Below, piece by piece: positions 7,129 through 63,300 of a stretch of 64,000 bases of DNA. A program made the translations under genes and the position numbers. Under the pieces are notes generated by a model, which saw nothing but the letters and a program-made list of their open reading frames with translations, did not search any database and was not told the origin of the DNA. Location: IMG/VR virus record IMGVR_UViG_3300014208_000024, positions 288,001 through 352,000 of that record; one strand, given 5' to 3'. Each line of letters opens with the position of its first letter. Within the stretch, counting starts at the first letter, position 1. The stretch is from a virus (taxonomy: Duplodnaviria > Caudoviricetes).

Positions 7129-7134
7129 GTAATT

Positions 7135-7160
7135 TGTAACTTTTTTTTCATAAAATCGTA
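7135..7160 (+). promoter_or_regulatory. ECF-sigma-type promoter
   Basis: TGTAAC-N16-CGTA. Confidence 0.7.
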
Positions 7161-7259
7161 TAGATTAGTAAACAAAAACTAATTTTTATGGATTTTAACA
7201 ACTTGGGAGACTGATACAAATGGTGGTTTTAAAAATTTACAATTTTCCCCCATATTTAT

Positions 7260-12657: not shown

Positions 12658-13444
12658 AGACGAACTCAGGCAAATTAAAAATATCAAAAAAGCTTATGTC
12701 CAATTATGGAAAGGCGATTTTGCAAACGAAGCAACTTATATTGCTTTTATGGGATGTGAATTTCTTAAGATTCCGACACAAAGATTTCACATAGAGGACA
12801 TGGGTACATTAGAAATTGACAAAGATACTGTGGTTTTTGGAGGAGTTACAGCTGTAAGAACTGGATTGTCAATGATTGGAGCAGAACTTCCAAAACCTCT
12901 TGATATTCCAGAAGAACTTTATCCATATACAAAAAGAAATATAAGATTGGGAACTATAAAATCTTTTATGGAAGAAAAAAATTTCCCACTTTTTGTTAAG
13001 CCAAGACTACCAAAATTGTTTACTGGAGCAGTTGTTTGTAGTGCTGAAGAATTAGAATTGTTCAAATATCTTCATACAGATGATTTGGACATGGAAATTA
13101 TGGCCTCTGATGTTGTTAAATTCGTTTCTGAATATAGAACATTTGTTTTGGAAGGACACCCTTATGATTGTAGAAAATATAGCGGAAATCACAGAATAAC
13201 ACCAGATTTCAATTTTATTGAAGAAACTATAAAAGCATATAAAACTGCGCCAGTGGCTTATGGTATTGACTTTGGAGTAACAGACAAAGGGGAAACTATG
13301 TTAATAGAAGCTAATGATGGTTACTCCCTGGGAACTTATGGCTTTGATTGCTATAATTATGTTAGAATGTGCATACTTCGCTGGAATCAAATTCTAAATA
13401 ATGAACAGTTTTTTAAAGAAGGTGATAAAATAGAAATTATGTAA
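12647..13444 (+). CDS. ATP-grasp domain protein (DUF4343/R2K-like)
   Basis: FVKP..PKLFTG, VSEYRTFV, IDFGV, LIEANDGYSLG. Confidence 0.8.
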   Translation: MKFKDELRQIKNIKKAYVQLWKGDFANEATYIAFMGCEFLKIPTQRFHIEDMGTLEIDKDTVVFGGVTAVRTGLSMIGAELPKPLDIPEELYPYTKRNIRLGTIKSFMEEKNFPLFVKPRLPKLFTGAVVCSAEELELFKYLHTDDLDMEIMASDVVKFVSEYRTFVLEGHPYDCRKYSGNHRITPDFNFIEETIKAYKTAPVAYGIDFGVTDKGETMLIEANDGYSLGTYGFDCYNYVRMCILRWNQILNNEQFFKEGDKIEIM

Positions 13445-13465
13445 CCTTTTTTGTTTTTTTTCGTA
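13440..13465 (+). promoter_or_regulatory. ECF-sigma-type promoter
   Basis: TGTAAC-N16-CGTA. Confidence 0.7.
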
Positions 13466-13492
13466 TAGTGTTAAAATTCAAAAAATATAATT

Positions 13493-15801: not shown

Positions 15802-15814
15802 AAAAACTAATTAA

Positions 15815-15840
15815 CCTAACTTTTATTTAATTTTCTCGTA
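15815..15840 (+). promoter_or_regulatory. ECF-sigma-type promoter
   Basis: CCTAAC-N16-CGTA. Confidence 0.65.
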
Positions 15841-15867
15841 TAACCCTATACAGAGAATAAAATAAAT

Positions 15868-16814: not shown

Positions 16815-16847
16815 AAAATCACTTTTGTTATAAATATTAAAAAAAAT

Positions 16848-16873
16848 AGTAACTTTTATTAAAATTTTTCGTA
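16848..16873 (+). promoter_or_regulatory. ECF-sigma-type promoter
   Basis: AGTAAC-N16-CGTA. Confidence 0.7.
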
Positions 16874-16904
16874 TATAAAAAAAATTTATTAATAATATTT
16901 GAAA

Positions 16905-18515: not shown

Positions 18516-18518
18516 ATA

Positions 18519-18544
18519 CGCAACTTTTTTATTTTTTTCTCGTA
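18519..18544 (+). promoter_or_regulatory. ECF-sigma-type promoter
   Basis: CGCAAC-N16-CGTA. Confidence 0.65.
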
Positions 18545-18561
18545 TATAATGAAAAAATTAT

Positions 18562-33405: not shown

Positions 33406-33738
33406 ATGAAAAGCATATTTGTAAAATTCGGGAACATGAGAGGTGAAGCGCAAGATTTTACCCTGTATCCGTACAATGGTGGTGATACGATTGTAATTCA
33501 ATCAGACAAAAGAATTGCACAGATCAATCTGAAAACAGGTGAAACGATACTGAGCAAACAGGTTCAGGGCGGGGCTTATTTCATGCACTTAAACGCATTT
33601 TTAGGGGCAACAGTTTGCCAATTTCCAAAAGATGAACTGATAAAAATTCAGGAATATTTGTGGAACAATGCAGGTGAAAAAATTCATGGAGGTATTTTGA
33701 TCACAGAAGACAAACCACTATTTTCAGTAAAATTATAA
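33406..33738 (+). CDS. Hypothetical early protein
   Basis: Start ATG 33406. Confidence 0.65.
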   Translation: MKSIFVKFGNMRGEAQDFTLYPYNGGDTIVIQSDKRIAQINLKTGETILSKQVQGGAYFMHLNAFLGATVCQFPKDELIKIQEYLWNNAGEKIHGGILITEDKPLFSVKL

Positions 33739-43161: not shown

Positions 43162-43698
43162 ATGAAAAAAACATCATTAACTGAAAAACAGAAAAAGATA
43201 GTTTCTGATCTGATCGCTGAATTTGAGGGCATAAACGCTCAGAAAAAATGCGACCACAATGACCTGTTTGCTTATATTGATAACACACTCAATGAGCGCA
43301 AAAGAATACAGGAAGAAATTATCCAGCATAACAAATTAATGTGTGCAAAACACCTTGAATACCTTGCTTCTATTGTTGGTGATGTTCGTAAAATGTGCGA
43401 AAGATATAATGTTTCGGTTGATTTTTCAAAAAGTATTTCGGGGACTATGAGAATAAGCTTTTATTTTTACAAAAGCAAAGATATGTTTGAAAAGTACGGA
43501 GAAAAAAGAGTGGGGTTTGATTGTTCACAACATGTTGATGTACTTATTGAAAACAGTAGAATTGAAGATGTAATGAAATACGGAGAAATTGTCGAATTAA
43601 GATGGAAAAAATCAAATTATGGATATGACATTGTAAAAAGAGAAGATTTCCCCAAATTTCTTGCCGACAAAATCATCGAAGTAAACAAAACTTTTTAA
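43162..43698 (+). CDS. Hypothetical early protein
   Basis: Own promoter. Confidence 0.65.
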   Translation: MKKTSLTEKQKKIVSDLIAEFEGINAQKKCDHNDLFAYIDNTLNERKRIQEEIIQHNKLMCAKHLEYLASIVGDVRKMCERYNVSVDFSKSISGTMRISFYFYKSKDMFEKYGEKRVGFDCSQHVDVLIENSRIEDVMKYGEIVELRWKKSNYGYDIVKREDFPKFLADKIIEVNKTF

Positions 43699-49850: not shown

Positions 49851-50105
49851 ATGAAAAAACAGATTATTGATGAATGGCACTTTTTACCTGAACTCCCAGA
49901 AGAGTGTGAAGAAGTTCTTATTGCAATTAAATATGAGAAAATTCCTATACAAGCTTATTTGATGGGAGGCAAATGGAAAATGTCTTTTGAATTAAAAAGC
50001 TGGTTACAGGATAAAGAATCTGTTAATCCATTATTAGAATGTGAAGAGTTTGTATATGCTTGGAAAAAACTTCCTTCTGTTCCTGATGTTCCAGATCCAT
50101 TTTGA
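49851..50105 (+). CDS. Hypothetical early protein (DUF551-like pattern)
   Basis: W....ELPE....VL...V.AW..LP. Confidence 0.55.
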   Translation: MKKQIIDEWHFLPELPEECEEVLIAIKYEKIPIQAYLMGGKWKMSFELKSWLQDKESVNPLLECEEFVYAWKKLPSVPDVPDPF

Positions 50106-50180
50106 AAATAAATTTAAAACTTAATTATTTGTTAACCTTATGTTAACGTAGTTATCTTTTATTTAAGTATTTATAGGCAA

Positions 50181-50387
50181 ATGAAAACAAAAATTATATT
50201 ATTATCTTTTATTTTATTTTACTCATGCAGTTCAACTGTTCATGTTTATAATTCTAAAAAACCATATTCTTTAGCAAAAGATATTAATTCAGAAATCATT
50301 TCAGAATTTTACAAAAAAGACACAAACGGAATTTCAAAAAAGATTTATCTATTAGACCAAAAAAATAACCATACGCCCCACAATTAA
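50181..50387 (+). CDS. Small putative lipoprotein
   Basis: MKTKIILLSFILFYS-C lipobox-like. Confidence 0.5.
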   Translation: MKTKIILLSFILFYSCSSTVHVYNSKKPYSLAKDINSEIISEFYKKDTNGISKKIYLLDQKNNHTPHN

Positions 50388-50471
50388 TTGGTCATTGTGG
50401 CAAACGGTGAGTTATTCTTTTTTGGAAATTCTAAATTAATTTAAAAATATTTAAAAATTTATTTGCTTTTT

Positions 50472-50497
50472 TGTAACCTTTTTTATATCTTTGCGTA
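50472..50497 (+). promoter_or_regulatory. Overlapping ECF-type and host TAnnTTTG promoter upstream of the tRNA cluster
   Basis: TGTAAC-N16-CGTA containing TATCTTTG at 50486-50493. Confidence 0.65.
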
Positions 50498-50624
50498 TAG
50501 ATGATTGGAAACAGTGGCAATCAAAAAGGGTTACTTCGTAAAATTCATAATTTTTATCTAAAGCACCCTCTGAATCTTACCCTGTTTTTTGATTTTAAAA
50601 ATTTTTGACTATTTAATAATATAT

Positions 50625-50697
50625 TGCAAGGTAGAGCAGTAGTTAGCTTGCGGCGCTCATAACGCCGAGGTCGTCGGTGCAAATCCGACCTTTGCAA
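50625..50697 (+). tRNA. tRNA-Met(CAT), fMet-like; CCA not encoded
   Basis: Cloverleaf TGCAAGG/CTTTGCA, GAGC/GCTT, CGGCG-CTCATAA-CGCCG, GTCGG-TGCAAAT-CCGAC. Confidence 0.9.
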
Positions 50698-50845
50698 CAA
50701 AGAAAAAATAAAAATGAAAGTTAATTTTAACATAGAGGAAAGCGAGGAACGTTTACTGAAAAGTATCCCTGCTAAAACTATGTAAAAGTACTGAAAAAGT
50801 AATTTGAAAAGAGGGATGCGAAAGTTTCCCTCTTTTTTTATTTAT

Positions 50846-50917
50846 GCCCTGTTCGTATAGAAGTCAGTACAACGGTTTTTCAAGCCGTAAAGGAGATAGC
50901 ATAATTCTCACAGGGTA
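50846..50917 (+). tRNA. tRNA-Glu(TTC) with non-canonical T-arm
   Basis: GCCCTGT/ACAGGGT, ACGGT-TTTTCAA-GCCGT, GAGAT-AGCATAA-TTCTC. Confidence 0.75.
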
Positions 50918-50924
50918 CAAAAAC

Positions 50925-50996
50925 GCTCGGTTCTTCTAACAGTAAGGATACCGCTCTTTCACAGCGGAGATACGATAGCATAATTCGTACCGAGTT
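50925..50996 (+). tRNA. tRNA-Glu(TTC) with non-canonical T-arm
   Basis: GCTCGGT/ACCGAGT, CCGCT-CTTTCAC-AGCGG, ACGAT-AGCATAA-TTCGT. Confidence 0.8.
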
Positions 50997-51006
50997 CAAG
51001 TGTTTG

Positions 51007-52131
51007 TTATTTTACAACTAATAACTTATAACGTAAACCATTATAAGTCGAAGAACAACTTAAAGAACAAAATTTACTTTTTGTTTCTTTTCCACATTGC
51101 AAACAATTATTCATCTTTTTTTGCTTACCTGAAAAATTTCTTAAATTAGCTGCTCTCCCCGAACATTCCCTACTACAATAATCGTTTTTTGCAGGCTTAC
51201 CACAAACTTTACATATATTTTTCTTTTCATTATATGGATTTCCTTCGTATAGTTTTACAAAATCACTTCCGTAAGTTTCTTTTACATATTTAAAAATCTC
51301 CCCCAGGTCTTTTTTAAACAACACTCTAAGTTTATGCGGAAAACTCTTAAATTTAGCATCATCATTTTTTCTTTTAAATCCTTTTATTTCGTAGTAAATT
51401 TCTTCTTTAATAAAATCAGGGTAATACTTATGAGTTTCCCCTTCGTAAAAATAATCAAACCCCTCAGTATTTCTTTTAAATTCAATTTTATGATCAATAT
51501 TGTAAATTATCCAAGCAAGCTCATAGCTGCTTCCACAATAAAATCCTTTATACCATCCGCTCTTACTGCGTCCAGATCCTTCTCTAATTCCTCCTCCACC
51601 ACATTTTCTAAACTCTGCATTTTTATCATTATTATAGCATTCTTTAGAACAATATATTTTTTTAGTTTTACAAGGTAAAACTTTAAATTCCTTTTTACAT
51701 ATAGGACATTCTTTTTTTATTAATTCCCTCTCTGAAATTTTTCGTCTTACCTTAAAGTTTTTTATTCTTGACTCTTTTGCTTTTTCAGAATTTTTAATAG
51801 ATTTACTAATATTTTCTTTTGTTTCTTTTGTTTGTTTTCTGCTATGTGCACAAAAAGAAGAACAAAACTTTTTTTCATCTTTCCCAGAAACTGTTTCAAA
51901 TTCTTTATTACATTTGGGGCATGTTTTTTTAATTACTTTATTTTTTAATTTTTCACTGGCACATATAACAGAGCAATAATTTCCATTAGCAAGGTATTTC
52001 GGACTTAAAATAGTAGACTTAATATAATGTTTAGTTTTATAAAAAGTTTTACCACACTCTAAACATTCAATTGGTAACAAGTCATTAGACTTAGCTAAAT
52101 TTAGTTCTTCATCTGTAAATAGTTGTTTCAT
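51007..52131 (-). CDS. Zn-finger-repeat endonuclease (TnsA-N/PD-(D/E)xK-like)
   Basis: C..C.K.F...K.CS..C repeats; SSYEL...YYPDF...YEIKG; TATTTATA upstream on the minus strand. Confidence 0.75.
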   Translation of the reverse strand: MKQLFTDEELNLAKSNDLLPIECLECGKTFYKTKHYIKSTILSPKYLANGNYCSVICASEKLKNKVIKKTCPKCNKEFETVSGKDEKKFCSSFCAHSRKQTKETKENISKSIKNSEKAKESRIKNFKVRRKISERELIKKECPICKKEFKVLPCKTKKIYCSKECYNNDKNAEFRKCGGGGIREGSGRSKSGWYKGFYCGSSYELAWIIYNIDHKIEFKRNTEGFDYFYEGETHKYYPDFIKEEIYYEIKGFKRKNDDAKFKSFPHKLRVLFKKDLGEIFKYVKETYGSDFVKLYEGNPYNEKKNICKVCGKPAKNDYCSRECSGRAANLRNFSGKQKKMNNCLQCGKETKSKFCSLSCSSTYNGLRYKLLVVK

Positions 52132-52268
52132 AATTTTGTTTTTCTATAAATAGTTAGAAAAAATAAAATCAATCAAAAAATATAAGTTCGATTTTCTAAC
52201 CAATTACACTCCCTCCACTTTTTCAAAAAATTCGCTTTATATACTCACAAACAAAAAAAATAAATTTT

Positions 52269-52613
52269 ATGGCAAAAGTATTTAACGCACCTGCGGAACT
52301 TAAAGTTCCTGATCTCAATTGGAAAGACATCCCACAGTATCATAAAGACTGTGATAAGTATTTTGAAGATTTGAAAAAACTTCTGATCGAAAAGTACAAA
52401 CGCACTGGCGCAAACGTTGGGGAAATAATTAAATTCCCTGTTGCTGATGGTTATGCTTTATATATGGTTGCAGGAATGAAACCTGTTGAATTGATACATA
52501 TTGAGATCGGTGATGCTTGGCACTTTCAGTATGCCAATCGTCTTACGGCAAAAGATGTTCAGCAAAAAATTGATCAGGAAAAGGCTCTTGCGAAATTGTT
52601 CTCCAAAAAGTAA
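52269..52613 (+). CDS. Hypothetical early protein
   Basis: Own promoter; GEIIKFPVADGYA.YMV. Confidence 0.65.
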   Translation: MAKVFNAPAELKVPDLNWKDIPQYHKDCDKYFEDLKKLLIEKYKRTGANVGEIIKFPVADGYALYMVAGMKPVELIHIEIGDAWHFQYANRLTAKDVQQKIDQEKALAKLFSKK

Positions 52614-52621
52614 TTTAAAAA

Positions 52622-52701
52622 GGGTGATTAACATTAATGCAAGAACAGTATTCTTGAAATAGAAGTAACGCTGCGTGTGGGTTCGATTCCCACATCACCC
52701 A
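52622..52701 (+). ncRNA. tRNA-like element or degenerate tRNA
   Basis: Perfect acceptor stem GGGTGAT/ATCACCC and T-arm GTGGG-TTCGATT-CCCAC; D-arm and anticodon loop non-canonical. Confidence 0.55.
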
Positions 52702-52749
52702 CTTTTCCAAATAATTCGCTTTATATAGTCATAATCAAAAATAAACATC

Positions 52750-53271
52750 ATGAAAATAGAACTTAAGAATGTGAAAATTAGCGAAAGCTTAAGTGAAGAA
52801 ACTACAGCTTTTACAGCCGACATATTTGTGAATGGGAAAAAAGCGGGATATGCAAGAAACGACGGCAGAGGAGGGTGCACTGAATATCACTCATTTCCTG
52901 AAACAAGAGAATTGTTTGATAAAGCTGAAAAATTTGCTTTGACACTTCCAAAAAAGGTTGAGGAATTTAACGGGAAAATATACGAGTTCAATTCAAATTT
53001 AGAACTTATTATTGATAACATAATTGAGAACGTTCTCAAAGAAAAAGACAAAAAGAAACTTGAAAAAGCTTGTCTTAAAGGAATATTTAAAGGAAATACA
53101 TTTGATTATTCAGGCGTTTCTTACAAACTTCCCCTGAAAGATATTGTTAGAATTCATAAAGAAAAAGGTGTTGCACATCTTCAGGGGGCTTACAACAAAA
53201 TGAAGTCTGAACTTAAACAAGGAGAAAAAATACTAAATACGAACTTAGAAGAATTGGGGATTATACTTTAA
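52750..53271 (+). CDS. Hypothetical early protein
   Basis: SEET.AFTA.I...G...G.A.NDG.GG; own promoter. Confidence 0.7.
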   Translation: MKIELKNVKISESLSEETTAFTADIFVNGKKAGYARNDGRGGCTEYHSFPETRELFDKAEKFALTLPKKVEEFNGKIYEFNSNLELIIDNIIENVLKEKDKKKLEKACLKGIFKGNTFDYSGVSYKLPLKDIVRIHKEKGVAHLQGAYNKMKSELKQGEKILNTNLEELGIIL

Positions 53272-53300
53272 TCCCCCGTTCTTCTTTAAAGTTATTTTAT

Positions 53301-53609
53301 ATGGCACAGCATTATGAATTAAAACGGCACATCGAGCCTAAGATCTTTAAAAGCGTAGATCGGGTTGCTGAATATTATGTAAGAGCATCAAAGTATATCA
53401 CACGCTATTTAAATGATTATACAGAGGAGGTTGTATATAAGAAGAAGACAACCAAACTCCCCGACGAATATAAGATCTTTGCAGAGGATCACCTCGTTTT
53501 AAAAGTTGGGAAATATGATCTTCAAGAAACCAAGGATCTCTTTGGATTATATCTCGAATGTCATATCGATGAAAAAGGGAAAGTACTTTCTATCTATATT
53601 GTAATGTAA
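53301..53609 (+). CDS. Hypothetical protein
   Basis: ORF. Confidence 0.55.
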   Translation: MAQHYELKRHIEPKIFKSVDRVAEYYVRASKYITRYLNDYTEEVVYKKKTTKLPDEYKIFAEDHLVLKVGKYDLQETKDLFGLYLECHIDEKGKVLSIYIVM

Positions 53610-53669
53610 AAACTCTCCCCCACTTTTTCAAAAAATTTGCTTTATATAGCCATAACGAAAAACTTCATC

Positions 53670-53870
53670 ATGGAATATGTAATAAAACTTTTAAGATATG
53701 ATTTGGAATGCCTATGCGAAGATTTATCTTCATCTGAGATAAAATTAAATATTTCAGTAAAAAACAAAATTGAAGATAATATAAAATTTTATTCTGAAGA
53801 AATAAAAATACTTTCAACAAACATTGAGCAGGTGAAAAAAGCTATTAAAATTTTAACTGACAAAAAATAA
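53670..53870 (+). CDS. Small coiled-coil protein
   Basis: Start ATG 53670. Confidence 0.55.
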   Translation: MEYVIKLLRYDLECLCEDLSSSEIKLNISVKNKIEDNIKFYSEEIKILSTNIEQVKKAIKILTDKK

Positions 53871-53927
53871 CAAATCCCACTTTTTCAAATAATTTGCTTT
53901 ATATAGTCATAACAAACAAAAAATCAA

Positions 53928-54113
53928 ATGGAAAAAGAACTTGGAATTGGCGTTGTAACAGATAAAGGGACTGTCATGGATATTGATGTAAGTTATAAGC
54001 CTAAAATTAAAGGCCAAACAATTTATTATGTTACAAAAACTCCTGAAAAATATGCAAAAGGAGTAAATTGTGGAATATGGAAGTTGAAAGAAGAACTTGT
54101 TTTACTTCAATAA
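53928..54113 (+). CDS. Small hypothetical early protein
   Basis: Own promoter. Confidence 0.55.
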   Translation: MEKELGIGVVTDKGTVMDIDVSYKPKIKGQTIYYVTKTPEKYAKGVNCGIWKLKEELVLLQ

Positions 54114-54207
54114 TAAATCCCACTTTTTCAGAAAATTCGCTTTATATACTTGTTAATGTAAAAAAAAATAAATAACTTTGCTAATTATTAACTAAATTTT
54201 TTTAAAA

Positions 54208-55020
54208 ATGGGATACAATAGTGAGTTCAAAGGGGGCTTCCTCCTTAACAAAGCATTGGACGATGTAACGTTCAATTTCTTAAATAAATTGGCCAACACT
54301 CGCAGAATGGCCAGAAAAGTAGATGCCAAATATGGTGTCCAAGGTGAATTTTATGTTGACGGCACAGGAGATTCTGGCCAAGGACGTGAACCAAATGTTA
54401 TTGATTTTAACGTAGCTCCAAGAACACAGCCAGGTTTATGGTGCCAGTGGGTTCCTACAGAAGATCGCAGAGGCATTGAGTGGGACGGTGGAGAAAAATT
54501 TTATGCCTATATTCAGTGGATTGAATATATTATTTCCAAAGTTCTTGCCCCCAGAGGATATGTTCTCAACGGTAATGTAAAATGGAGAGGTGAAGATTTT
54601 GATGACACTGGTGTTATTGAAATCCATGACAACATGGTTCAGGGAAAACGTTTGATTGTGGATTATTCAATCAACAAACTTTTGGGGGCTGTTGGCGCTT
54701 CTACTGGTGTAAAAAATTCCACTCCATCTGTTTCTACCAATAACAAACGCAAAGCTGGTGTAAGACCTGATGGAACAAAAACAAAACATCAGATTTACAA
54801 AGAGAAGCAAGAAGCTGCAAAAAAACTTCTTGAAGATCAGATTGCAAAATTAGAAGCTGATCTGAAAGCTGCAGATGAGGAGCTGAAAAAGAAAAAAGTA
54901 GCAATTACAAAGAAGCTGACCGTAAATGATGTTGTTCTGGATCAGATCAGGAAAAAAGCTGAATTTGGAAGTACACTGGAAGATTTCAAAAAAACACTGA
55001 GGAATTTACTGGAAGATTAA
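54208..55020 (+). CDS. Phage protein with PGLWCQW...WDGGEKFY domain and coiled-coil tail
   Basis: Own promoter; long ORF. Confidence 0.7.
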   Translation: MGYNSEFKGGFLLNKALDDVTFNFLNKLANTRRMARKVDAKYGVQGEFYVDGTGDSGQGREPNVIDFNVAPRTQPGLWCQWVPTEDRRGIEWDGGEKFYAYIQWIEYIISKVLAPRGYVLNGNVKWRGEDFDDTGVIEIHDNMVQGKRLIVDYSINKLLGAVGASTGVKNSTPSVSTNNKRKAGVRPDGTKTKHQIYKEKQEAAKKLLEDQIAKLEADLKAADEELKKKKVAITKKLTVNDVVLDQIRKKAEFGSTLEDFKKTLRNLLED

Positions 55021-55081
55021 ATTCCCACTTTTTTAAATAATTTGCTTTATATAGTTGTTAGATAAATTAAAACTTAAGAAA

Positions 55082-55708
55082 ATGAAAGACGTAAAAGAGA
55101 TGAGTAAGAGTGCAATAGCCGATTTGGAATTGGTTAACGCCATCAAAAGTGAAGACAAAAGAAAATCAGAAAAGGCTTTTTCTCTGCTGTTTAAAAAATA
55201 CCATGATACTATGCTGTTTCACTTCAGGGGATTGGTAAAAGATGAAGAAGATGCAAAAGAAATTGTTCTCGAAGCTTTTGTAAAAGTAAGTTCAAACATT
55301 GAAAAATTCAATCAGGATTCCGCTGTGTTCAGCACATGGTTATTCAGACTTACACAGAATCTTTTCATCGATAAACTGAGAAAGAAAAAAGATGATGTTG
55401 TTTCTCTTAGCGACATGGCTACATATGACGAAGATAGCCATACTTTCGAGTTCGACTTTGAAGATTGTGATGGAACTCCTGAATCTAAAATACTGGATTC
55501 AGAAAAAGAAAGAAGAGTAAATGAAGTTCTTTCAAAAATGGAAAATCAGGAACTTGCCGAAATGATAAAAATGAGATATTTCCAAGGTCTGTCATACGAA
55601 GAAATCTCTAATGTTACGGGTAAACCTTTGGGAACTATAAAAGCTTTTATCTTCAGAGCAAAACAATTTCTGAAAAAAGACCTTAAAAGAGCTAAATTAA
55701 ATTTTTAA
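55082..55708 (+). CDS. ECF-family RNA polymerase sigma factor
   Basis: AF..LF.KY, DA.EIV.EAF.K, FSTWLFRL..NLFID.LRK (region 2), RYFQGLSYEEIS...G.PLGTIK..IFRA (region 4). Confidence 0.92.
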   Translation: MKDVKEMSKSAIADLELVNAIKSEDKRKSEKAFSLLFKKYHDTMLFHFRGLVKDEEDAKEIVLEAFVKVSSNIEKFNQDSAVFSTWLFRLTQNLFIDKLRKKKDDVVSLSDMATYDEDSHTFEFDFEDCDGTPESKILDSEKERRVNEVLSKMENQELAEMIKMRYFQGLSYEEISNVTGKPLGTIKAFIFRAKQFLKKDLKRAKLNF

Positions 55709-55776
55709 AATTCTACTTGATAATTTTTAAAGAAATCCTTATATTTACTTATAAGGATTTTTTTTTATTTATTATT

Positions 55777-56283
55777 ATGGTACCACAACAAGCAGGCCGT
55801 CCCCTCACTCCAGCAGAAAAGAAACAATATCTTTTGGCCAAATACACAAAGAGAGACTACAATGTAGGTGATTTAGAAAGTTGTAAAAAATATGCAGTAT
55901 ATTTTTGTCCAAATTTGGAACTTGTAAAAGAATGGAAATTATTACATGTATGTGGGAATCTGAATGAAGCAAAACAACAGATTTTTTGGAGAAAACAATA
56001 CATGAGTACAAAGGATGGGGATTTAATTATAGATAATTGTGAAGATTTTAAGACATGGAGAGATGAAACAAAAAATGTTGACTCTAACGGGAATGCTTAT
56101 GAGCCAGGAGAAGAATTAATGAAAATTGATTATAATGCTCCAGGAAATATGATTCAGGTAATAGCAAGTTCGACTCCAGCTCAACAAAATTCTAATGGAT
56201 TCAAAGGATTTGGGTTTTATACAGGAATTGAGATTGGAAATTATCAAGGTTTTTATAAAATTGAGGAAATTTACGAAGTATAG
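55777..56283 (+). CDS. Hypothetical protein
   Basis: Start ATG 55777, downstream of the sigma gene. Confidence 0.6.
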   Translation: MVPQQAGRPLTPAEKKQYLLAKYTKRDYNVGDLESCKKYAVYFCPNLELVKEWKLLHVCGNLNEAKQQIFWRKQYMSTKDGDLIIDNCEDFKTWRDETKNVDSNGNAYEPGEELMKIDYNAPGNMIQVIASSTPAQQNSNGFKGFGFYTGIEIGNYQGFYKIEEIYEV

Positions 56284-56340
56284 TAAAATAAACTCCCACT
56301 TTTTCAAATAATTTGCTTTATATAGTCAAAAGTTATTAAT

Positions 56341-56802
56341 ATGAAAAAAATTATTGAAGCTACGTATCATTTATTGTTCTTTAAAACTTATACCCACTTT
56401 TCAAGGTGGTTTGAAATTAGTAGCGGCATACTTGTTTGGTTAAATATTGCATTATTAGTTTGTATAATGAGTGGATGTGTAAAAGAAGGCCCCAGTGGAT
56501 ATGCAGAAATTTCAAGTGTTGAAGAACAGGAAAAATATGAAGTCAGTCATGATTCAACTTGGTCCAATGCTGATTCTATTGAATATGGTTTACTTCCAGT
56601 TTGGTATAAAGTAAAAAATACTGGCTTCGGAGAAATACATAAATATTCCATAACATTCGCTGTACTTCTTACAAATGGAAACTATATATACACTGAATCT
56701 TTTGGTACTGGAGTTAGAGATTATTCAACATCTTTAATATACATAGAAACCAACGGGCAAGAAGCGCAAGATGTTTTAATAACCAATCTTCAAGTTGAAT
56801 AA
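56341..56802 (+). CDS. Putative membrane protein or lipoprotein
   Basis: Hydrophobic stretch ending in SGC. Confidence 0.55.
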   Translation: MKKIIEATYHLLFFKTYTHFSRWFEISSGILVWLNIALLVCIMSGCVKEGPSGYAEISSVEEQEKYEVSHDSTWSNADSIEYGLLPVWYKVKNTGFGEIHKYSITFAVLLTNGNYIYTESFGTGVRDYSTSLIYIETNGQEAQDVLITNLQVE

Positions 56803-56862
56803 TTTGTTTTATCAACAAAATAATTACTTGGTTTTAACTTTTTTGTACTATTTATAAATAAA

Positions 56863-57801
56863 ATGGATACAAAAGAATTTATAGAAAAATCGAAAAAAAT
56901 TCATGGGGATAAATATGATTATTCAAAAAGCATATATGTAAAGTCAAAGATAAAATTGACAATCATTTGTCCAATTCATGGAGAATTTTTTATGGCACCA
57001 CAATCGCATTTGTATGGAAAAAACGGATGTCAAAAATGTGCAAAAATAAAAGGTCTACAAAATTTAATTAATAATTCAAATAAAAAAAGAATAACATTTG
57101 AATCATTTTTAGAAAGAGCAAAAAATATTCATAACAACAAATATGAATATGAAAAAATTGAAATTAAAAATTTTTATCAAAAAGTTCGAATTAAATGCCC
57201 TGTTCATGGATGGTTTATTCAATCTGTAGCTGATCATTTAAGAAAGCATGGATGTATTGAATGTCACAGACCAAATAGAGGAAGCTCTCAACGATTGCTG
57301 TTAGGAGAATTTATAGAAAAAGCAAATAATATTCATAATAATATATATGATTATTCAAAGGTAGTTTACACTAATAATCATACAAAAATAATAATAGGGT
57401 GTAAAACCCATGGAGATTTTCAACAAACACCTGCATCTCATTTAAAATCTAATGGATGTCCAATTTGCAAAAGTTCTAAAGGAGAAATAAAAATAAAAGA
57501 ATTTTTAGAAAAAAGAAACATTTTGTTTAAACAACAAAAAACATTTTCTGGATGTAAAAATAAACAACTTTTGCAATTTGATTTTTATCTTCCTGATTTA
57601 AATTCTTGTATTGAATATGATGGAATGCAACATTTTAAAGCAATAGAATATTTTGGAGGGGAAAAAGGTTTAATTGAAACTAAAAAGCGTGATATTATAA
57701 AAAATGAATATTGTAAACAAAACAATATTTCTTTATTAAGAATAAAGTACAATGAAAAAATAGAAAATAAAATTACTTCTTTTTTAAAAACTTTTTTTTA
57801 A
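56863..57801 (+). CDS. Zn-finger (CPxHG) repeat PD-(D/E)xK endonuclease
   Basis: KYDYSK...ICP.HGEF repeats; FDFYLP....IEYDG.QHF; TATTTATA upstream. Confidence 0.8.
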   Translation: MDTKEFIEKSKKIHGDKYDYSKSIYVKSKIKLTIICPIHGEFFMAPQSHLYGKNGCQKCAKIKGLQNLINNSNKKRITFESFLERAKNIHNNKYEYEKIEIKNFYQKVRIKCPVHGWFIQSVADHLRKHGCIECHRPNRGSSQRLLLGEFIEKANNIHNNIYDYSKVVYTNNHTKIIIGCKTHGDFQQTPASHLKSNGCPICKSSKGEIKIKEFLEKRNILFKQQKTFSGCKNKQLLQFDFYLPDLNSCIEYDGMQHFKAIEYFGGEKGLIETKKRDIIKNEYCKQNNISLLRIKYNEKIENKITSFLKTFF

Positions 57802-57918
57802 ATTTCGGTTTGCTCGTAAACCCCACAGTAAATCCACAAATCCAAAACTCCCACTTTTTCAAATAATTTGCTTTATATACTCACATAAACTAAATATTAA
57901 CAATTTAAATTTAAAAAA

Positions 57919-58758
57919 ATGGTACGTGAATTAAGTGAAAAAATAGGCTGGGAAATTGAAAGTAAAAATATTTTCTCAGGAGATCAAATAGGTCTCGAAA
58001 AAATTTTAGGGTACAAAGCTGTTACTCGTAATGATAACGGAGGAGTTCTCTCAGTTATGAAAAAATCTTATTCCCCCATGACCAACACAGAGTTTTTAGA
58101 AGTGGTTTCAAAAATTCAAGAAATATCTGGATTTAAACTTGCAGGGTTTAATGAATTCAGACAAGGGAGGAAAGTTTTGGGGTTCCTTGAAAATGATAAA
58201 GAGGATTTATATATTGGAGGACATAAAATAAAAGATTATTTTTTAGTTGGAAACAGCTTTGATGGATCTACATCTTTCTTCCAAGGTACATCGACAATTC
58301 TAATCCGCTGTCAAAATCAGTTCAGCCAAATTAATGTAATGAACAAAATCCGCCATACGAAAAGTATAGGAAGAAAACTTGAAGAATTTTATTCCTACTT
58401 AGATTTTTATTTCAACAAAAGAAATGAATTATATAAAACTTTCGAGCAACTTGGAAATATTACCCTCACAGAAAATTTACGTGAAAATCTTATTAAAGCT
58501 GCCCTTGGAGTTAAAGAAGTTACTGACAAAGAAATATCAGCTCGTAAACAAAATCAAATCGACCTGCTGAGATCAACAATACTCGCAGAAACTTTGGAAC
58601 TGGGCGAAAATATGTGGGGGGCATTTAATGGAGTTACAAAATATACAACCCACGAAATCGAAACAAAAAACCCCATCTTCGGAAATGTCTTCGGAAATCA
58701 GGCCGATATCAATAACAGAGCAATGGAATTTGCAACCAAAGAACTGGTAATGTCATAA
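57919..58758 (+). CDS. DUF932/DUF945-family protein
   Basis: R.D...L.V....Y.P..N.E, NSFDGS, IRCQNQ, .RHT, T.WG.FN.VT.Y..H. Confidence 0.75.
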   Translation: MVRELSEKIGWEIESKNIFSGDQIGLEKILGYKAVTRNDNGGVLSVMKKSYSPMTNTEFLEVVSKIQEISGFKLAGFNEFRQGRKVLGFLENDKEDLYIGGHKIKDYFLVGNSFDGSTSFFQGTSTILIRCQNQFSQINVMNKIRHTKSIGRKLEEFYSYLDFYFNKRNELYKTFEQLGNITLTENLRENLIKAALGVKEVTDKEISARKQNQIDLLRSTILAETLELGENMWGAFNGVTKYTTHEIETKNPIFGNVFGNQADINNRAMEFATKELVMS

Positions 58759-58821
58759 AGAAACTGGGGGAGGAAACTCTCCCCCACATTTTTTAAATGT
58801 TTAACTTAATAATTTATAATC

Positions 58822-59250
58822 ATGCATAAATCATTTGTAATTTTACTTTCGATTTTATTTAGCTTTATTATATTTGTAGACATAGGAACTATTGCATCTA
58901 TCGCATATAGAGATAATCAAAGAATCAATCAAGAAATAACTGTAAACAAAGACAGTTTCGAAGATCAATATCCCAGACTTGGACCATTTATTACCATTGA
59001 AGATTTTATACATGTAGATAGTATTTATAAAGCAGAAATGGACAGGATAAATAAATTAAAAAACAAACCTTTTAAAATGATTACAAAATGTAAATTTATT
59101 CCCGAAGTTGAATTTGTTGATTATGGAACATTCAAAGAAATAGATAGTCTTAAATGTATTCGACAAAAAGAAATGGAAAATCTTATCAAGCAAGAGAAAG
59201 AACAAGAAAAAGAACTTGATCTATTAAATAATAAACCCTGTAATAATTAA
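58822..59250 (+). CDS. Membrane-anchored hypothetical protein
   Basis: N-terminal TM segment. Confidence 0.55.
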   Translation: MHKSFVILLSILFSFIIFVDIGTIASIAYRDNQRINQEITVNKDSFEDQYPRLGPFITIEDFIHVDSIYKAEMDRINKLKNKPFKMITKCKFIPEVEFVDYGTFKEIDSLKCIRQKEMENLIKQEKEQEKELDLLNNKPCNN

Positions 59251-59332
59251 AAAGCCAAAGGGGGAGGAAACTCTCCCCATTTTTTTCTCTTTTTTTTTGC
59301 ATATTTAATGGAAATTCAAAACACCATTATCT

Positions 59333-59569
59333 ATGAAACCAAAAGAAACATTTAAGGAAATGCTCACTCTTTGCTATGAAGAAGATTTCCCAGAATTACA
59401 CAAAGAATTAATTTCACTTGAAAGTGAAACAAAAAAGATCAGAGACTCGTATAAGTATGAAAAAGCAATGGAGGAAATATTTAATCTTATACCCCTATTT
59501 TCTGAAGACTTTCCCCAGGAAATAATGTTGCAACTGGAAAAACTATATGAAGATTGTATAGAAGAATAA
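59333..59569 (+). CDS. Small acidic helical protein
   Basis: ORF after terminator 59268-59290. Confidence 0.55.
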   Translation: MKPKETFKEMLTLCYEEDFPELHKELISLESETKKIRDSYKYEKAMEEIFNLIPLFSEDFPQEIMLQLEKLYEDCIEE

Positions 59570-59584
59570 CTTAATTTAAATAAA

Positions 59585-60187
59585 ATGAAAAAAATCTCTG
59601 GAGACGTTATCGCTCACCTCCTGTTTGGAGTGGCTGCAATTGGTTTATTAATCGGTGGAGCTATTATGCTAATAGCATCTTTCTTTACAGCTCTCCCTAT
59701 ATTTAATGCTTTTATCGTATTAACACTGGGAGCTATCCTATATGTGGGAGTTAGACTTTATTTTGTATTCGGCGATGTACTGGAATCTATAACTAAATTA
59801 ATAGAAATTTCTTCCTCTCCCCAGATAAATAAGAACGGTAGAATATATAAAAATGGATTGTTAACAAAACAAATGGGATTTGGAGACCTGCCAACTCATG
59901 ATCTATCAAAAATTCCACATCCTGCACCAGGATTAATTGATGAAATTCTTATTGATGAAAATACAACCCCAGAGGAAATTGAAAATATTAAAAAGAAATA
60001 TCCTGGGTTCTCTCATGCAATTGATGAAATACTGGAAAAGGTTGGGGGGATTTCACGTACATCTACTTTACCCCTATCTTCTCTCTCTTCTTTTAAATTA
60101 GAAAAACTTCTTCAGGAAGCTATTGATAAAAATGATTTTGAAAGAGCTGCTGAAATAAGAGACGAAATTAATAGAAGGAATAAGTAA
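59585..60187 (+). CDS. Two-TM membrane protein with C-terminal UVR (UvrB/C) coiled-coil motif
   Basis: LEKLLQEAIDKNDFERAAEIRDEI. Confidence 0.7.
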   Translation: MKKISGDVIAHLLFGVAAIGLLIGGAIMLIASFFTALPIFNAFIVLTLGAILYVGVRLYFVFGDVLESITKLIEISSSPQINKNGRIYKNGLLTKQMGFGDLPTHDLSKIPHPAPGLIDEILIDENTTPEEIENIKKKYPGFSHAIDEILEKVGGISRTSTLPLSSLSSFKLEKLLQEAIDKNDFERAAEIRDEINRRNK

Positions 60188-60208
60188 CCTTTTAAAAATT
60201 AATCCGTA
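60183..60208 (+). promoter_or_regulatory. ECF-sigma-type promoter
   Basis: AGTAAC-N16-CGTA. Confidence 0.6.
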
Positions 60209-60354
60209 TAAGATAGTAAGAGTAATTTATATAACAAGTTGTATCTACTAATCGCATGATTAAAACCCCACACCCAAAATTTGCTGGGGTTTTTTTATTC
60301 CCACTTTTTAAAATAATTTGCTTTATATAGTTATTGTTAAAAAAAACTAAAGCT

Positions 60355-60525
60355 ATGTTTGAAAAACTAATCTGGAAACTGTTTAAAATGAACAGGAATG
60401 ATTTCAATAAGGCAGATAAGAAAATTGAAAAGATACTGCTTGAAGTTTATGAAAAAGGTAAAAAGGATGGCAAAAAAGAAATGTCAAAATTAATGTCGAT
60501 ATTAGTTAAAAAAACAATATTATGA
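60355..60525 (+). CDS. Small hypothetical early protein
   Basis: Start ATG 60355. Confidence 0.55.
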   Translation: MFEKLIWKLFKMNRNDFNKADKKIEKILLEVYEKGKKDGKKEMSKLMSILVKKTIL

Positions 60526-60911
60526 AATTAGAAATTAAGCAATACAAATATGAAAAAATAGAGGTGTCATCAAAAGAAATTGAATTGCCAACTGAAACCT
60601 CTTACTTTTTTCAAACTGGAATAAGACGTTCAATAAAAATAACTCCACGTTTTACAACTTGGAATAAAAAACACTATAATAAAGAAGAAGAGTTATATGA
60701 ACTTATAGTTGTTTGTTTATACCAAAATTTTGAATGTAAAGCAGAAAAGTTCAGCTTAAGAGTTAATGAATTAGAAAATATTTATTATTCTGAAAAAGAC
60801 GAAAATAAAGAATTTGTAACTGCATTGATTGATGGTTGTTTTAATAAAAGAACTAAAGAACAATTTGATGCTGATTTTAAACACATATTTTCAGAAATGC
60901 AGTGTCTTTAA
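60522..60911 (+). CDS. Hypothetical protein
   Basis: ATGA overlap. Confidence 0.6.
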   Translation: MKLEIKQYKYEKIEVSSKEIELPTETSYFFQTGIRRSIKITPRFTTWNKKHYNKEEELYELIVVCLYQNFECKAEKFSLRVNELENIYYSEKDENKEFVTALIDGCFNKRTKEQFDADFKHIFSEMQCL

Positions 60912-60912
60912 A

Positions 60913-61443
60913 ATGAAAAAATTTCTCCTGTTCATATTCAATTTATTCAATAAGAAATCTCTGGAGCCCCCAAAACCAGAACTCATCGTCATTAGCAAAA
61001 AATCAAATAGCGGAAGTACAATACAAAACCATTTTGTCTATACAGCTGCAAACCCCAGTATTAAATCTCTGGCCGCTTCTGTGCTTCTTAAAAATGATCT
61101 TATGTTTCAAGATGTAGACTACCTGGAAGATGAACTTCATAAATGGCTCGAATTTCGTGAAAGATATCTATATAAACAACTGATATTAAAAAAAGGTCTG
61201 ATATGTACCTATTGTGGAAAACCCCACCTGGAAATCGGAGGTAGAACCCCCAAAGATATTATCGCTAATAACAAAAACCCAAACCTGGCAACTATAGACC
61301 ATATTACAGCGCTCGCTAATGGGGGATCAAAGTATGATGAAGATAATCTATGCGTTAGCTGTAAAAAATGCAACAGAAACAAAGGAACAACCCCAGTGGA
61401 AGAATTTAAAAGAAAATTAAATTTTAAAAATTTTAATCAATAG
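60913..61443 (+). CDS. HNH endonuclease
   Basis: CTYCG...ATIDHI.AL.NGG.....NL.VSC..CN..KG. Confidence 0.85.
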   Translation: MKKFLLFIFNLFNKKSLEPPKPELIVISKKSNSGSTIQNHFVYTAANPSIKSLAASVLLKNDLMFQDVDYLEDELHKWLEFRERYLYKQLILKKGLICTYCGKPHLEIGGRTPKDIIANNKNPNLATIDHITALANGGSKYDEDNLCVSCKKCNRNKGTTPVEEFKRKLNFKNFNQ

Positions 61444-61444
61444 T

Positions 61445-61470
61445 TGTAACCTTTTTTAATTTTTCTCGTA
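61445..61470 (+). promoter_or_regulatory. ECF-sigma-type promoter
   Basis: TGTAAC-N16-CGTA. Confidence 0.7.
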
Positions 61471-61477
61471 TTAATAG

Positions 61478-61590
61478 GTAACTTGGATAACTTGGACGCC
61501 CGTCCTTAAACTATTCAAGTCTTTGTATTCTTTGTCTGTTTTATTTTTTAGAAACCCCTGAGCTTGTCCCTCTGGGGTTTCAGTTTTTTA
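61478..61590 (+). ncRNA. Candidate small RNA
   Basis: ACTTGGATA/TATTCAAGT stem enclosing GGAC-GCCC-GTCC; terminator GAAACCCC...GGGGTTTC-T6. Confidence 0.45.
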
Positions 61591-61746
61591 AAAACTTTTT
61601 TTTAAATTTCGGTTCCGTCGTAAACCCCCACAAACAATCTCTTTTTCTATTTTTTATTTTTCTTTTTTTAAATTTCGGTTTGCTCGTAAACCCCCATAGT
61701 AAAACCCCCAATCTAAAATTCCCACTTTTTTAAAAAATTTGCTTTA

Positions 61747-61772
61747 TATAACTTTTGCCTTTTTTCTGCGTA
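61747..61772 (+). promoter_or_regulatory. ECF-type promoter overlapping the last class-1 promoter
   Basis: TATAAC-N16-CGTA. Confidence 0.6.
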
Positions 61773-61781
61773 TAAACCATT

Positions 61782-62057
61782 ATGGAAATATCAGTAACAA
61801 TTGAATCTATAAAACCAATTACCCTGGACCAGCTGTCCAGAGAAAAAACATACGTGGTTTTTAACTCAACATCATTCTATATTCACTCTGGGGATGATCT
61901 AAAGTGTCTGACAAACCAGGATGACATTAACATGACAACATCTCAGCTCTTTGATAATATAGGCCCCGCAGGATCGCATTACGTAGCTGAATGTGAATCT
62001 ATGGACGCTGCACTGGATTACTTTAATTCAGGTCACTGGAGATCATATAGTGAATAA
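61782..62057 (+). CDS. Hypothetical protein
   Basis: Tandem class-1 and ECF promoters upstream. Confidence 0.6.
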   Translation: MEISVTIESIKPITLDQLSREKTYVVFNSTSFYIHSGDDLKCLTNQDDINMTTSQLFDNIGPAGSHYVAECESMDAALDYFNSGHWRSYSE

Positions 62058-62059
62058 TT

Positions 62060-63300
62060 ATAACTAAGTTTTGTTACAGAGCCCTTGGGGATTATCCCAG
62101 CTTATTTTCATATCTGTTTTAAAAACTTTTTTTTTAATTTCTTTTTTGTCGTATACGCAGTTTTCCAAAAACTAAATAAAAAATAGAATTAGAATAGAAC
62201 TACATCTTCTCTACCAATGTGCGTCACTTCAGATTTTTTATTCCTGGGCCCAATTTTTTCTCAGGGACCTGTAACATTCTCAATAAAATCACGTACCAAT
62301 TAGTACAAGGGGGAAACCCCACAATTTTTAGATGACAACATTTAAAAACTAACGAATAAGAAAGGAGTATACTATGAAAAGGTAATTTGAAAATAATCTG
62401 ATAGACTTTTGGGAATGAAACAATATAGTTGTCTCTCCCCAGAAGAAAACAATAAAGTTATTATTGTTATCAGGATTACTATTTTTTGATCGCTAATTTT
62501 TGGGGATTATTTCCCCCTAGGATAACTACACCTCTTCCTTAAAAAAATGAAGTGAGTTCTCCCCACAAAATAACTATGCCCAAAAATATTTAAAATTTGT
62601 AAATTTATTTAAGGTTTACATAGGGGGATTTCTATAACCAAAAACTCTGGGGGCTTACTCTCATCCAAAACCCCCCACTATTTATTGTAAATTTATAATT
62701 TCACTTATTCTTTTGTTCCACGTGGAACAACTATATCCCCCTCAGTCATTTTAAAAATATTTAAAAGGTCCCTTATTTTTTTAAAAATCAAAGGTGAGTA
62801 TTTGGGGGCACTGAGTGTGAGTCAGTTGCGTCCCACCCCAGACCCCAAAAAGTATTTTTCACAACAACAATTTTTTCTTCTAACTTTACATTTAACCATT
62901 TATCTAAAAACCAGTTAGTTACTTATTTAAAAGTGCAAATAAGTGGGATAAAGTGGTAAATCTCCCCAGATTTCCCCCATAGTTTTTCCCTCAATCTTTC
63001 CCCAGAAATTCCCCATTAATAATTTGGGTAATTCTCCCTTAATATTCTGTAACAATATTATGTTATAAATGTTACATTTCTCCCCAGGAAATTCTGCAGG
63101 TAATTTAAGTAATTTCTGTCGCATATTTAGCATATATATGTGACAAGCAACATGCAACATCTCCCTGATAATTAATTAGAAGTGGGGGTTAAAATAGCGG
63201 AGGGGGGTCGGCGGATTAAAGAGGTAATTCTCCCCATAATATTAAGAAGTTAAAATTGGTACTTCTCCCCATGGTTTTTATCTATCTTTGTTTTTTGAAA
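62060..63300. other. Long non-coding, origin-like region
   Basis: ~1.2 kb without a credible gene; ~9 TCTCCC(C)-type words and C/G runs. Confidence 0.45.
62714..62729. promoter_or_regulatory. parS: parS-type palindrome (ParB-binding site)
   Basis: TGTTCCACGTGGAACA within the perfect 18-bp palindrome 62713-62730. Confidence 0.75.

Follow-up and report, generated by a model that had tools for sequence, protein, structure and literature searches.

A phage-encoded SigW-like sigma factor and its probable promoter set in a 372-kb groundwater phage genome

The stretch of DNA analysed here (the window; 64,000 nucleotides, numbered from its first letter) corresponds to bases 288001-352000 of the IMG/VR virus genome IMGVR_UViG_3300014208_000024 and carries, on the plus strand at 55082-55708, a gene for a SigW/RpoE-like extracytoplasmic function (ECF) sigma factor of 208 amino acids (P0001). 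The source record is 372,283 bp long, with 28.7% G+C, and is rated 100% complete by CheckV. The phage is uncultured, and the stretch is present in two groundwater DNA metagenome runs; no RNA run was found for it. Its genome encodes a gp23-type major capsid protein and a large terminase, together with 46 tRNA genes reported by ARAGORN. A megablast search with window positions 50000-62000 against GenBank phages returned no match.

The sigma gene, its product and its promoter

A sequence-only reading of this DNA had placed an ECF sigma gene at 55021-55708. Profile searches bear out the identity of the gene, with Pfam matches to Sigma70_r2 (PF04542, 1e-11, residues 45-112 of the 217-residue open reading frame, ORF), Sigma70_r4_2 (PF08281, 1.2e-9), PF04545 (1.6e-6, likewise region 4) and Sigma70_ECF (1.6e-5). 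The right-hand boundary at 55708 stands, but position 55021 falls in the upstream promoter region and coding begins at 55082. The ORF could start at TTG 55055 or at ATG 55082, and we set the start at the ATG because the N-termini of the orthologues begin there (alignment A1). The product is a short two-domain protein in which Pfam detects no Sigma70_r3 or r1 match at E <= 0.01.

Within NCBIfam, the protein scores 85 bits against the sigma70-ECF superfamily model TIGR02937 (cutoff 42.9), and its best single model is SigW, followed by RpoE, both far under their equivalog cutoffs. A PDB profile search built on 21 family members returned Bacillus subtilis SigW as the top match (5wuq, 4.2e-30), followed by AlgU/RpoE, and helix 4 of region 2 is very like that of SigW (FSTWL.R...NL.ID..RKKK). 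These results confirm that the protein belongs to the ECF (group 4) branch of the sigma-70 family, of the SigW/RpoE type; it is SigW-like and no SigW orthologue. Searching for related loci with the single protein as query gave no relative, and alignment A1 was needed to find them. About 32 orthologues, every one from metagenomes, share 47-67% identity with the phage protein; the contigs of several measure 187-540 kb.

Exactly one ECF-type sigma factor is encoded across the 372-kb genome. A second sigma factor, of 279 amino acids, matches regions 1.2, 2, 3 and 4 and is of the primary, SigA-like type. Two further candidates were rejected, namely an ORF at about 34.5 kb of the genome with a weak r4_2 match, judged from its sequence to be a helix-turn-helix HNH endonuclease, and an 881-residue protein (genome 91231-93876) in which a 26-residue region-2-like piece scores 19.7 bits against a Pfam cutoff of 24 and region 4 is missing. 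No phage multisubunit RNA polymerase (beta/beta') was detected with the Pfam models Rpb2_6 and Rpb1_2, which divergent phiKZ-type enzymes could escape, and the phage therefore appears to depend on the host core polymerase, as do the sigma-encoding 'group 2' jumbo phages (PMC7824862).

The sigma gene lies directly behind a promoter of a class that we term class-1, as the sequence-only reading had also proposed. This promoter (55024-55053, plus strand) has the form CCCAC-TTTTTT-N6-TTTGCTTTATATA, with CCCAC at 55024-55028 and TTTGCTTTATATA at 55041-55053, and ends 28 nt before the sigma ATG. The genome has 59 copies of the class-1 core, TT[TC]GCTTTATA. Every copy is intergenic and falls within genome positions 300-360 kb, and 58 are on the plus strand. 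Preceded by CCCAC and a T-tract, the core forms an array at window positions 29000-62000 (genome 317-350 kb), with roughly one copy per small gene. In all five phages examined (this phage, L007, L008, L053 and L054) the sigma gene stands directly behind an array promoter. Among these related phages the C-rich box varies (CCCAC, CCCTC, CCCCC) and CTTTATA is kept; this phage-to-phage change of the box suggests a phage-specific reader. Class-1 does not fit the Bacteroidota promoter form TTG-N19-TAnnTTTG, nor does it fit TTGACA/TATAAT.

A bipartite intergenic motif with a fixed spacer

The sequence-only reading had further listed nine intergenic AAC-N16-CGTA sites in the window as ECF promoters. 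All nine are present, with AAC starting at 7138, 13443, 15818, 16851, 18522, 50475, 60186, 61448 and 61750, three bases downstream of the TGT or TGA from which that reading had counted. Its comparison of the motif with the ECF signature of SigW agrees with the published SigW promoter, tGAAACnTTTt...CGTA, in which CGTA at -10 confers SigW selectivity among the B. subtilis ECF sigmas and the T-tract just after the -35 block is a described functional element of B. subtilis ECF promoters (Gaballa et al. 2018, PMC5758882). The extended consensus of 31 T-tract sites in the phage genome is tG(T/A)AAC(T/C)TTTT...CGTATA, with some conservation further downstream.

The motif is strongly enriched at this one spacer length. 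AAC-N16-CGTA matches 14 times in the window, against 2.3 expected, and none of 100 shuffles reached 14; the five matches beyond the nine sites lie at 43495 (minus strand), 43920, 47645, 55071 and 62273, four of them overlapping coding sequence, with T-poor spacers. Across the genome the pattern occurs 52 times, as against 11, 11, 20 and 12 times with spacers of 14, 15, 17 and 18 nt, and 39 of the 52 matches are intergenic although intergenic DNA makes up 13.7% of the genome. The genome-wide intergenic scan that had been proposed for this motif yielded 31 G[TA]AAC-N16-CGTA sites, whereas 200 dinucleotide shuffles averaged 0.26 +/- 0.52; the same scan at spacers of 14, 15, 17 and 18 nt gave 0, 1, 4 and 0 sites. 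Nearly all strict motif sites (32/34) are intergenic, and a position weight matrix at >=14 bits finds 39 sites in the genome (10 in the window) and none in a reversed-sequence control. An alternative parsing as a sigma-70-type TTGTAA/TATAGA promoter was rejected, as its spacer would be 19 nt.

The sites occupy genome positions 0-80 kb, on the minus strand, and 280-372 kb, mostly on the plus strand, matching local gene direction, and hardly any occur in the 100-280 kb block that contains the capsid and terminase genes. Sites with an ORF immediately behind them end 19-40 nt short of the start of that ORF. On this evidence, the genome is predicted to carry about 35-40 ECF-type promoters.

Within the window, where all of the sites described here lie on the plus strand, the genes that the sequence-only reading had named behind the promoters (Thg1, CoaC/CoaB, radical SAM, tRNAs and small terminated units) were recovered. 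The predicted promoter at 7134-7164 (26.2 bits) precedes genes with Pfam matches to GIY-YIG, Thg1, CoaC and CoaB, and that at 13439-13469 (34.5 bits) precedes two small ORFs and a radical SAM/SPASM gene. Putative promoters at 15814-15844 (16.7 bits, with CTAAC as its -35) and 16847-16877 (28.9 bits) lie before ORFs of 98 and 205 amino acids, respectively, and a further one at 18518-18548 (21.5 bits, -35 GCAAC) is separated by a leader of some 200 nt from ORFs that include an RNase T-like exonuclease. The highest of these scores, 38.1 bits, belongs to 50471-50501, a composite site of the form TGTAAC-N16-CGTATA with TATCTTTG (TAnnTTTG) in its spacer and TTG upstream. It precedes a tRNA-Met gene (50625-50698) and a second tRNA gene (50846-50917), the latter found by Rfam (35.5 bits) and not reported by ARAGORN.

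Two of the predicted promoters would drive short sRNA-like units for which Rfam has no family. The first, at 60182-60212 (23.0 bits), belongs to a small terminated unit of about 80 nt (60215-60296, plus strand; ends estimated from the sequence and alignment A4) that closes with a CCCCA...TGGGG hairpin and a T run. In L008, L053 and L054, the orthologous promoter site follows a gene with a UVR motif. In two of these relatives TnpB/IS605-type genes are inserted immediately behind the gene with the UVR motif and the ECF-type promoter that follows it (L053 14269-17414, L054 13590-13676), a point that corresponds to the place of the small unit in this phage, and the gene table of a further relative shows one too. 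The second promoter, at 61444-61474 (28.4 bits), lies after an HNH gene, and its block AAGTTGTAACCTTTTT and -10 CGTAT are identical in three phages (alignment A3). It precedes a unit of about 110 nt (61477-61589, plus strand; ends estimated from alignment A3) with a conserved terminator hairpin, whose stem shows compensatory changes and whose CTTGTCCC loop is conserved across the three phages.

At 61721-61776, before a 91-residue ORF, a class-1 promoter (61721-61750) abuts a weak ECF-type site (61746-61776, 17.1 bits) that has no upstream TG. The overlap of the two classes that had been proposed at 61719-61772 is thus real, the last A of TATATA (61750) being the first A of AAC. A candidate tenth site at 62269-62299 (14.3 bits) is intergenic, with a T-poor spacer and CGTACC.

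Elsewhere in the genome, ECF-type sites precede genes for RtcB, Sir2, DUF3228, another radical SAM protein and a KaiC-like ATPase, and most tRNA clusters have such a site in front. The tRNA complement includes suppressor-type tRNAs, two with a CUA anticodon (genome 74251-74324 and 75335-75409) and one with UUA (33634-33706), and the first CUA (amber-suppressor) tRNA lies directly behind a 33-bit ECF-type site. Read-through of TAG or TGA barely extends reading frames, which speaks against recoding of the entire genome and leaves it unsupported as an explanation of these tRNAs.

Neighbouring genes, related phages and a third motif class

Directly upstream of the sigma gene lies a gene for a 270-residue protein (54208-55020, plus strand; phrog_38666, of unknown function) with its own class-1 promoter at about 54119-54148, and downstream lies a gene for a 168-residue protein of no known family (55777-56283, plus strand). 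Both are kept beside the sigma gene in relatives, and the order of the trio (54208-56283) is preserved. The 168-residue protein has no Pfam, NCBIfam or PHROG match; its family counts about 30 orthologues, several of them on contigs that match the contigs of sigma orthologues in size. ECF sigma factors typically have an adjacent anti-sigma gene, and no anti-sigma domain was found in the neighbours of this one with Pfam, NCBIfam or PHROGs. A complex prediction for the sigma factor and the 168-residue protein scored 0.00, which is evidence neither for nor against binding.

The fixed spacer recurs at the loci of related phages that carry the sigma orthologue. Locus L007 (record G001; sigma 62% identical) has nine spacer-16 sites against 0-2 at other spacers, L008 (record G002; 52%) has six against 0-3, and L053 (48%) likewise six against 0-3; the 13.7-kb L054 (56%) has three matching sites, yet spacer 16 is not enriched there (3 versus 0-3). 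Across whole records, AAC-N16-CGTATA sites of the T-tract type number about 30 in G001 (290,886 bp) and 17 in G002 (186,855 bp), and the stricter GWAAC-N16-CGTA pattern occurs 22 times in G001 (control 2) and 8 times in G002 (control 3). Near-complete capsid relatives that lack a sigma orthologue show no such excess, with no site in G005 (222 kb; control 3) and two in G006 (294 kb; control 3), and G004, with a sigma homologue of 29% identity, shows no spacer preference. Downstream of the HNH gene and of the UVR-motif gene, the orthologous intergenic regions keep the -35 block with its T-tract, the -10 block and the terminator hairpin, and have otherwise diverged. Relatives also preserve TTTGCGTATA together with AAC at 16 nt.

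A third sequence, TATTTATA, marks a distinct class of upstream motif. On the coding strand it is found no more than 70 nt from 92 gene starts, as compared to 26 for its reverse complement; among permutation controls, one was found at 9 gene starts and another, which overlaps the motif, at 81. Copies occur throughout the genome. Their median distance to the ATG is 15 nt, a very short one for a promoter element; they never co-occur with class-1 and rarely with CGTATA. The genes behind TATTTATA may be late genes.

The reader of the ECF-type promoters and known systems

We consider it likely that the phage ECF sigma directs polymerase to its AAC-N16-CGTATA promoters and thereby switches on a second-phase set of genes. 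The sigma gene would be transcribed from the class-1 promoter of the small-gene array, and its product would then bind host core RNA polymerase. The resulting holoenzyme would be guided to the about 35-40 promoters with tG(T/A)AAC at -35, a T-tract, a fixed gap of 16 nt and CGTATA at -10, and transcription would start a few bases downstream of CGTATA. The second-phase set would comprise tRNA operons, including the suppressor tRNAs, and genes for RNA repair and tRNA maturation (RtcB, Thg1 and the RNase T-like exonuclease), as well as CoaB and CoaC for CoA synthesis, Sir2, radical SAM enzymes, the KaiC-like ATPase and at least two short terminated RNAs. We infer from the sequence that the sigma reads the motif, and with this the start sites and the timing. 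If it does, the class of promoter that drives its own gene must fire first, and on that ground we infer that class-1 is earlier than the ECF-type class.

Several observations weigh against this assignment. The link between sigma and motif rests on family resemblance and co-occurrence, and the latter could also reflect differences between hosts. At the level of the protein, the scores fall below the SigW equivalog cutoffs (108.7 versus 209 bits for NF007223 and 86 versus 243 for TIGR02948), and the -10-recognition loop, before the conserved FSTW, resembles RpoE/AlgU more than SigW; promoter specificity is consequently not readable from the sigma sequence. Most bacterial ECF sigmas are autoregulated from their own ECF-type promoter, and the gene studied here has none, the promoter upstream of it being class-1; the only AAC-N16-CGTA match in the vicinity (55071) lies across the start codon, with a T-poor spacer and a score of less than 12 bits. 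In addition, a complete 519-kb relative (G003, IMGVR_UViG_3300014205_000170; capsid 68% identical) has only a distant ECF homologue (26%) and yet its terminal small-gene array (bases 1-50000 and 515000-518809) carries one AAC-N17-CGTATA site per gene, with about 48 in the first 50 kb, and there the ECF-type motif seems to play the part of the array promoter. Finally, nine sites, most of them before tRNA operons, hold TAnnTTTG in the spacer, most with cTTG about 21 nt upstream. TAnnTTTG is the -7 element of Bacteroidota primary-sigma promoters; its end falls exactly at CGTA in eight of the nine composite sites, the ninth (genome 73012) showing an offset of one base.

The composite sites admit an explanation of their own, in which they are mainly read by a primary-type sigma, either host SigA or the 279-residue phage protein, through TTG-N~21-TAnnTTTG, their AAC and CGTA letters being secondary or inherited by promoter duplication. 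The phage does encode a sigma with regions 1.2, 2, 3 and 4, and the composite copies are near-identical, so that common descent from one ancestor could explain part of their conservation. The same sites, however, hold the highest ECF-type matrix scores in the genome (32-38 bits), and more than 20 others have AAC and CGTATA with no TAnnTTTG; the joint preservation of TTTGCGTATA and AAC in relatives likewise tells against this explanation, although the two readings are not exclusive. We regard predominant use of these nine sites by a primary-type sigma as possible but rather doubtful, and in the simplest view they may be dual promoters, usable by primary-type and ECF sigma factors alike. It is unlikely that a host ECF sigma reads the ECF-type promoters as a whole, with the phage sigma having other targets or merely reinforcing the host factor. 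AAC/CGT is a generic signature common to many bacterial ECF sigmas (PMC5758882), B. subtilis ECF sigmas overlap in promoter recognition, and G003 combines many AAC-N17-CGTATA sites with a distant homologue only. Against this, motif and sigma orthologue travel together, both being present in genomes G000, G001 and G002 and both missing from near-complete G005 and G006, which favours a phage sigma over a host factor. Nor was an alternative repeated target for the phage sigma found, the other repeated motifs being TATTTATA and class-1, the promoter class of the sigma gene itself. Moreover, anti-sigma factors as a rule keep host ECF sigmas inactive, which would make these ill suited to the expression of 46 phage tRNAs.

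Recognition of the motif by another phage factor is very improbable: the 279-residue sigma and the 881-residue protein are both encoded in the genome, but the former is of the primary type, a group of which AAC/CGT is not the signature, and the region-2-like segment of the latter stays below the Pfam cutoff with no region 4 to accompany it. Most improbable of all is that the sites are some other repeated signal, such as a repressor operator or a terminator-associated element, given their bipartite form with one strict spacer length, their intergenic position in the direction of the next gene, with their ends 19-40 nt upstream of a start codon or immediately ahead of tRNAs, and the conservation of both blocks across phages while the spacer varies.

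The preferred assignment, in which the phage sigma reads the ECF-type promoters, can be carried further, although only tentatively. The middle mode of T4 uses MotA/AsiA, not a sigma. The conserved SigW-like sigma might be the dedicated second-phase switch in one clade of huge phages whose capsids are T4-type and whose hosts are probably Bacteroidota, in place of the MotA/AsiA mechanism. Its regulon would consist of 46 tRNAs, amber and ochre suppressors included, together with RtcB, Thg1 and small RNAs. In that case the promoters of the tRNAs would be dual, the ECF spacer enclosing a primary-sigma -7 element, and would fire before and after the switch; as an amber-suppressor tRNA gene lies directly behind such a promoter, the sigma would in this scenario time stop-codon read-through.

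For this phage and at least four relatives, the analysis provides a readable transcription programme, consisting of an array promoter, about 35-40 predicted sigma-type promoters and the separate TATTTATA class. It also indicates the likely timing of the large tRNA set, the suppressor tRNAs and the RNA-repair enzymes. Because sigma and promoters are canonical and strongly conserved, the pair lends itself to direct testing in another host species and could find use as an orthogonal expression part.

The closest known system is SigW of B. subtilis, which likewise has two-domain ECF architecture and which the phage protein matches best in both PDB and NCBIfam. The phage motif shares with the SigW promoter TGAAAC-N16-CGTA its core blocks, the 16-nt gap, the CGTA(TA) -10 and the T-tract, and differs from it in having TGTAAC at -35 as often as TGAAAC. 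Unlike SigW, the sigma studied here is phage-encoded, has neither an adjacent RsiW-like anti-sigma gene that we could find nor an autoregulatory promoter, and is expressed under another promoter class. Sigma cascades are known from SPO1, with gp28 followed by gp33/34, and from T4, with gp55/gp33. The present phage resembles large-phage sigma cascades in its gp23-type capsid, in the lack of a detected phage RNA polymerase, in its phage-encoded sigmas and in motif classes that hardly overlap. Among jumbo phages, the sigma-encoding 'group 2' has gp23-type capsids, and minimal and RpoD-like sigmas have been described in it (PMC7824862); the term 'ECF' is absent from the text of that review.

A phage member of the ECF family is known in phiEco32, where gp36 drives middle and late promoters (PMC4281155; PMC4331800, the latter with phages 7-11 and SU10). 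Both phages place the gene for such a sigma behind a promoter class other than its proposed targets, in both the regulon can be deduced from repeated intergenic motifs, and in both the host core polymerase is redirected to later promoters, as proposed here for this phage. The phiEco32 regulon, however, consists of six promoters with a single -10-type motif, tAATGTATAtA (PMC4281155), as compared to the about 35-40 bipartite -35/-10 sites predicted here, and the ECF-type sites of this phage precede tRNA and auxiliary genes rather than virion genes. The ECF sigmas of crAss-like and other uncultured phages, several of them annotated as 'sigma-W factor', are distant relatives, with 25-31% identity; no promoter set assigned to them was met with, no search having been aimed at one. 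That a phage ECF sigma can turn on later genes is thus already established; the novelty lies in a SigW-like family conserved among huge phages, accompanied by a large set of canonical, bipartite putative promoters before tRNA, RNA-repair and auxiliary genes.

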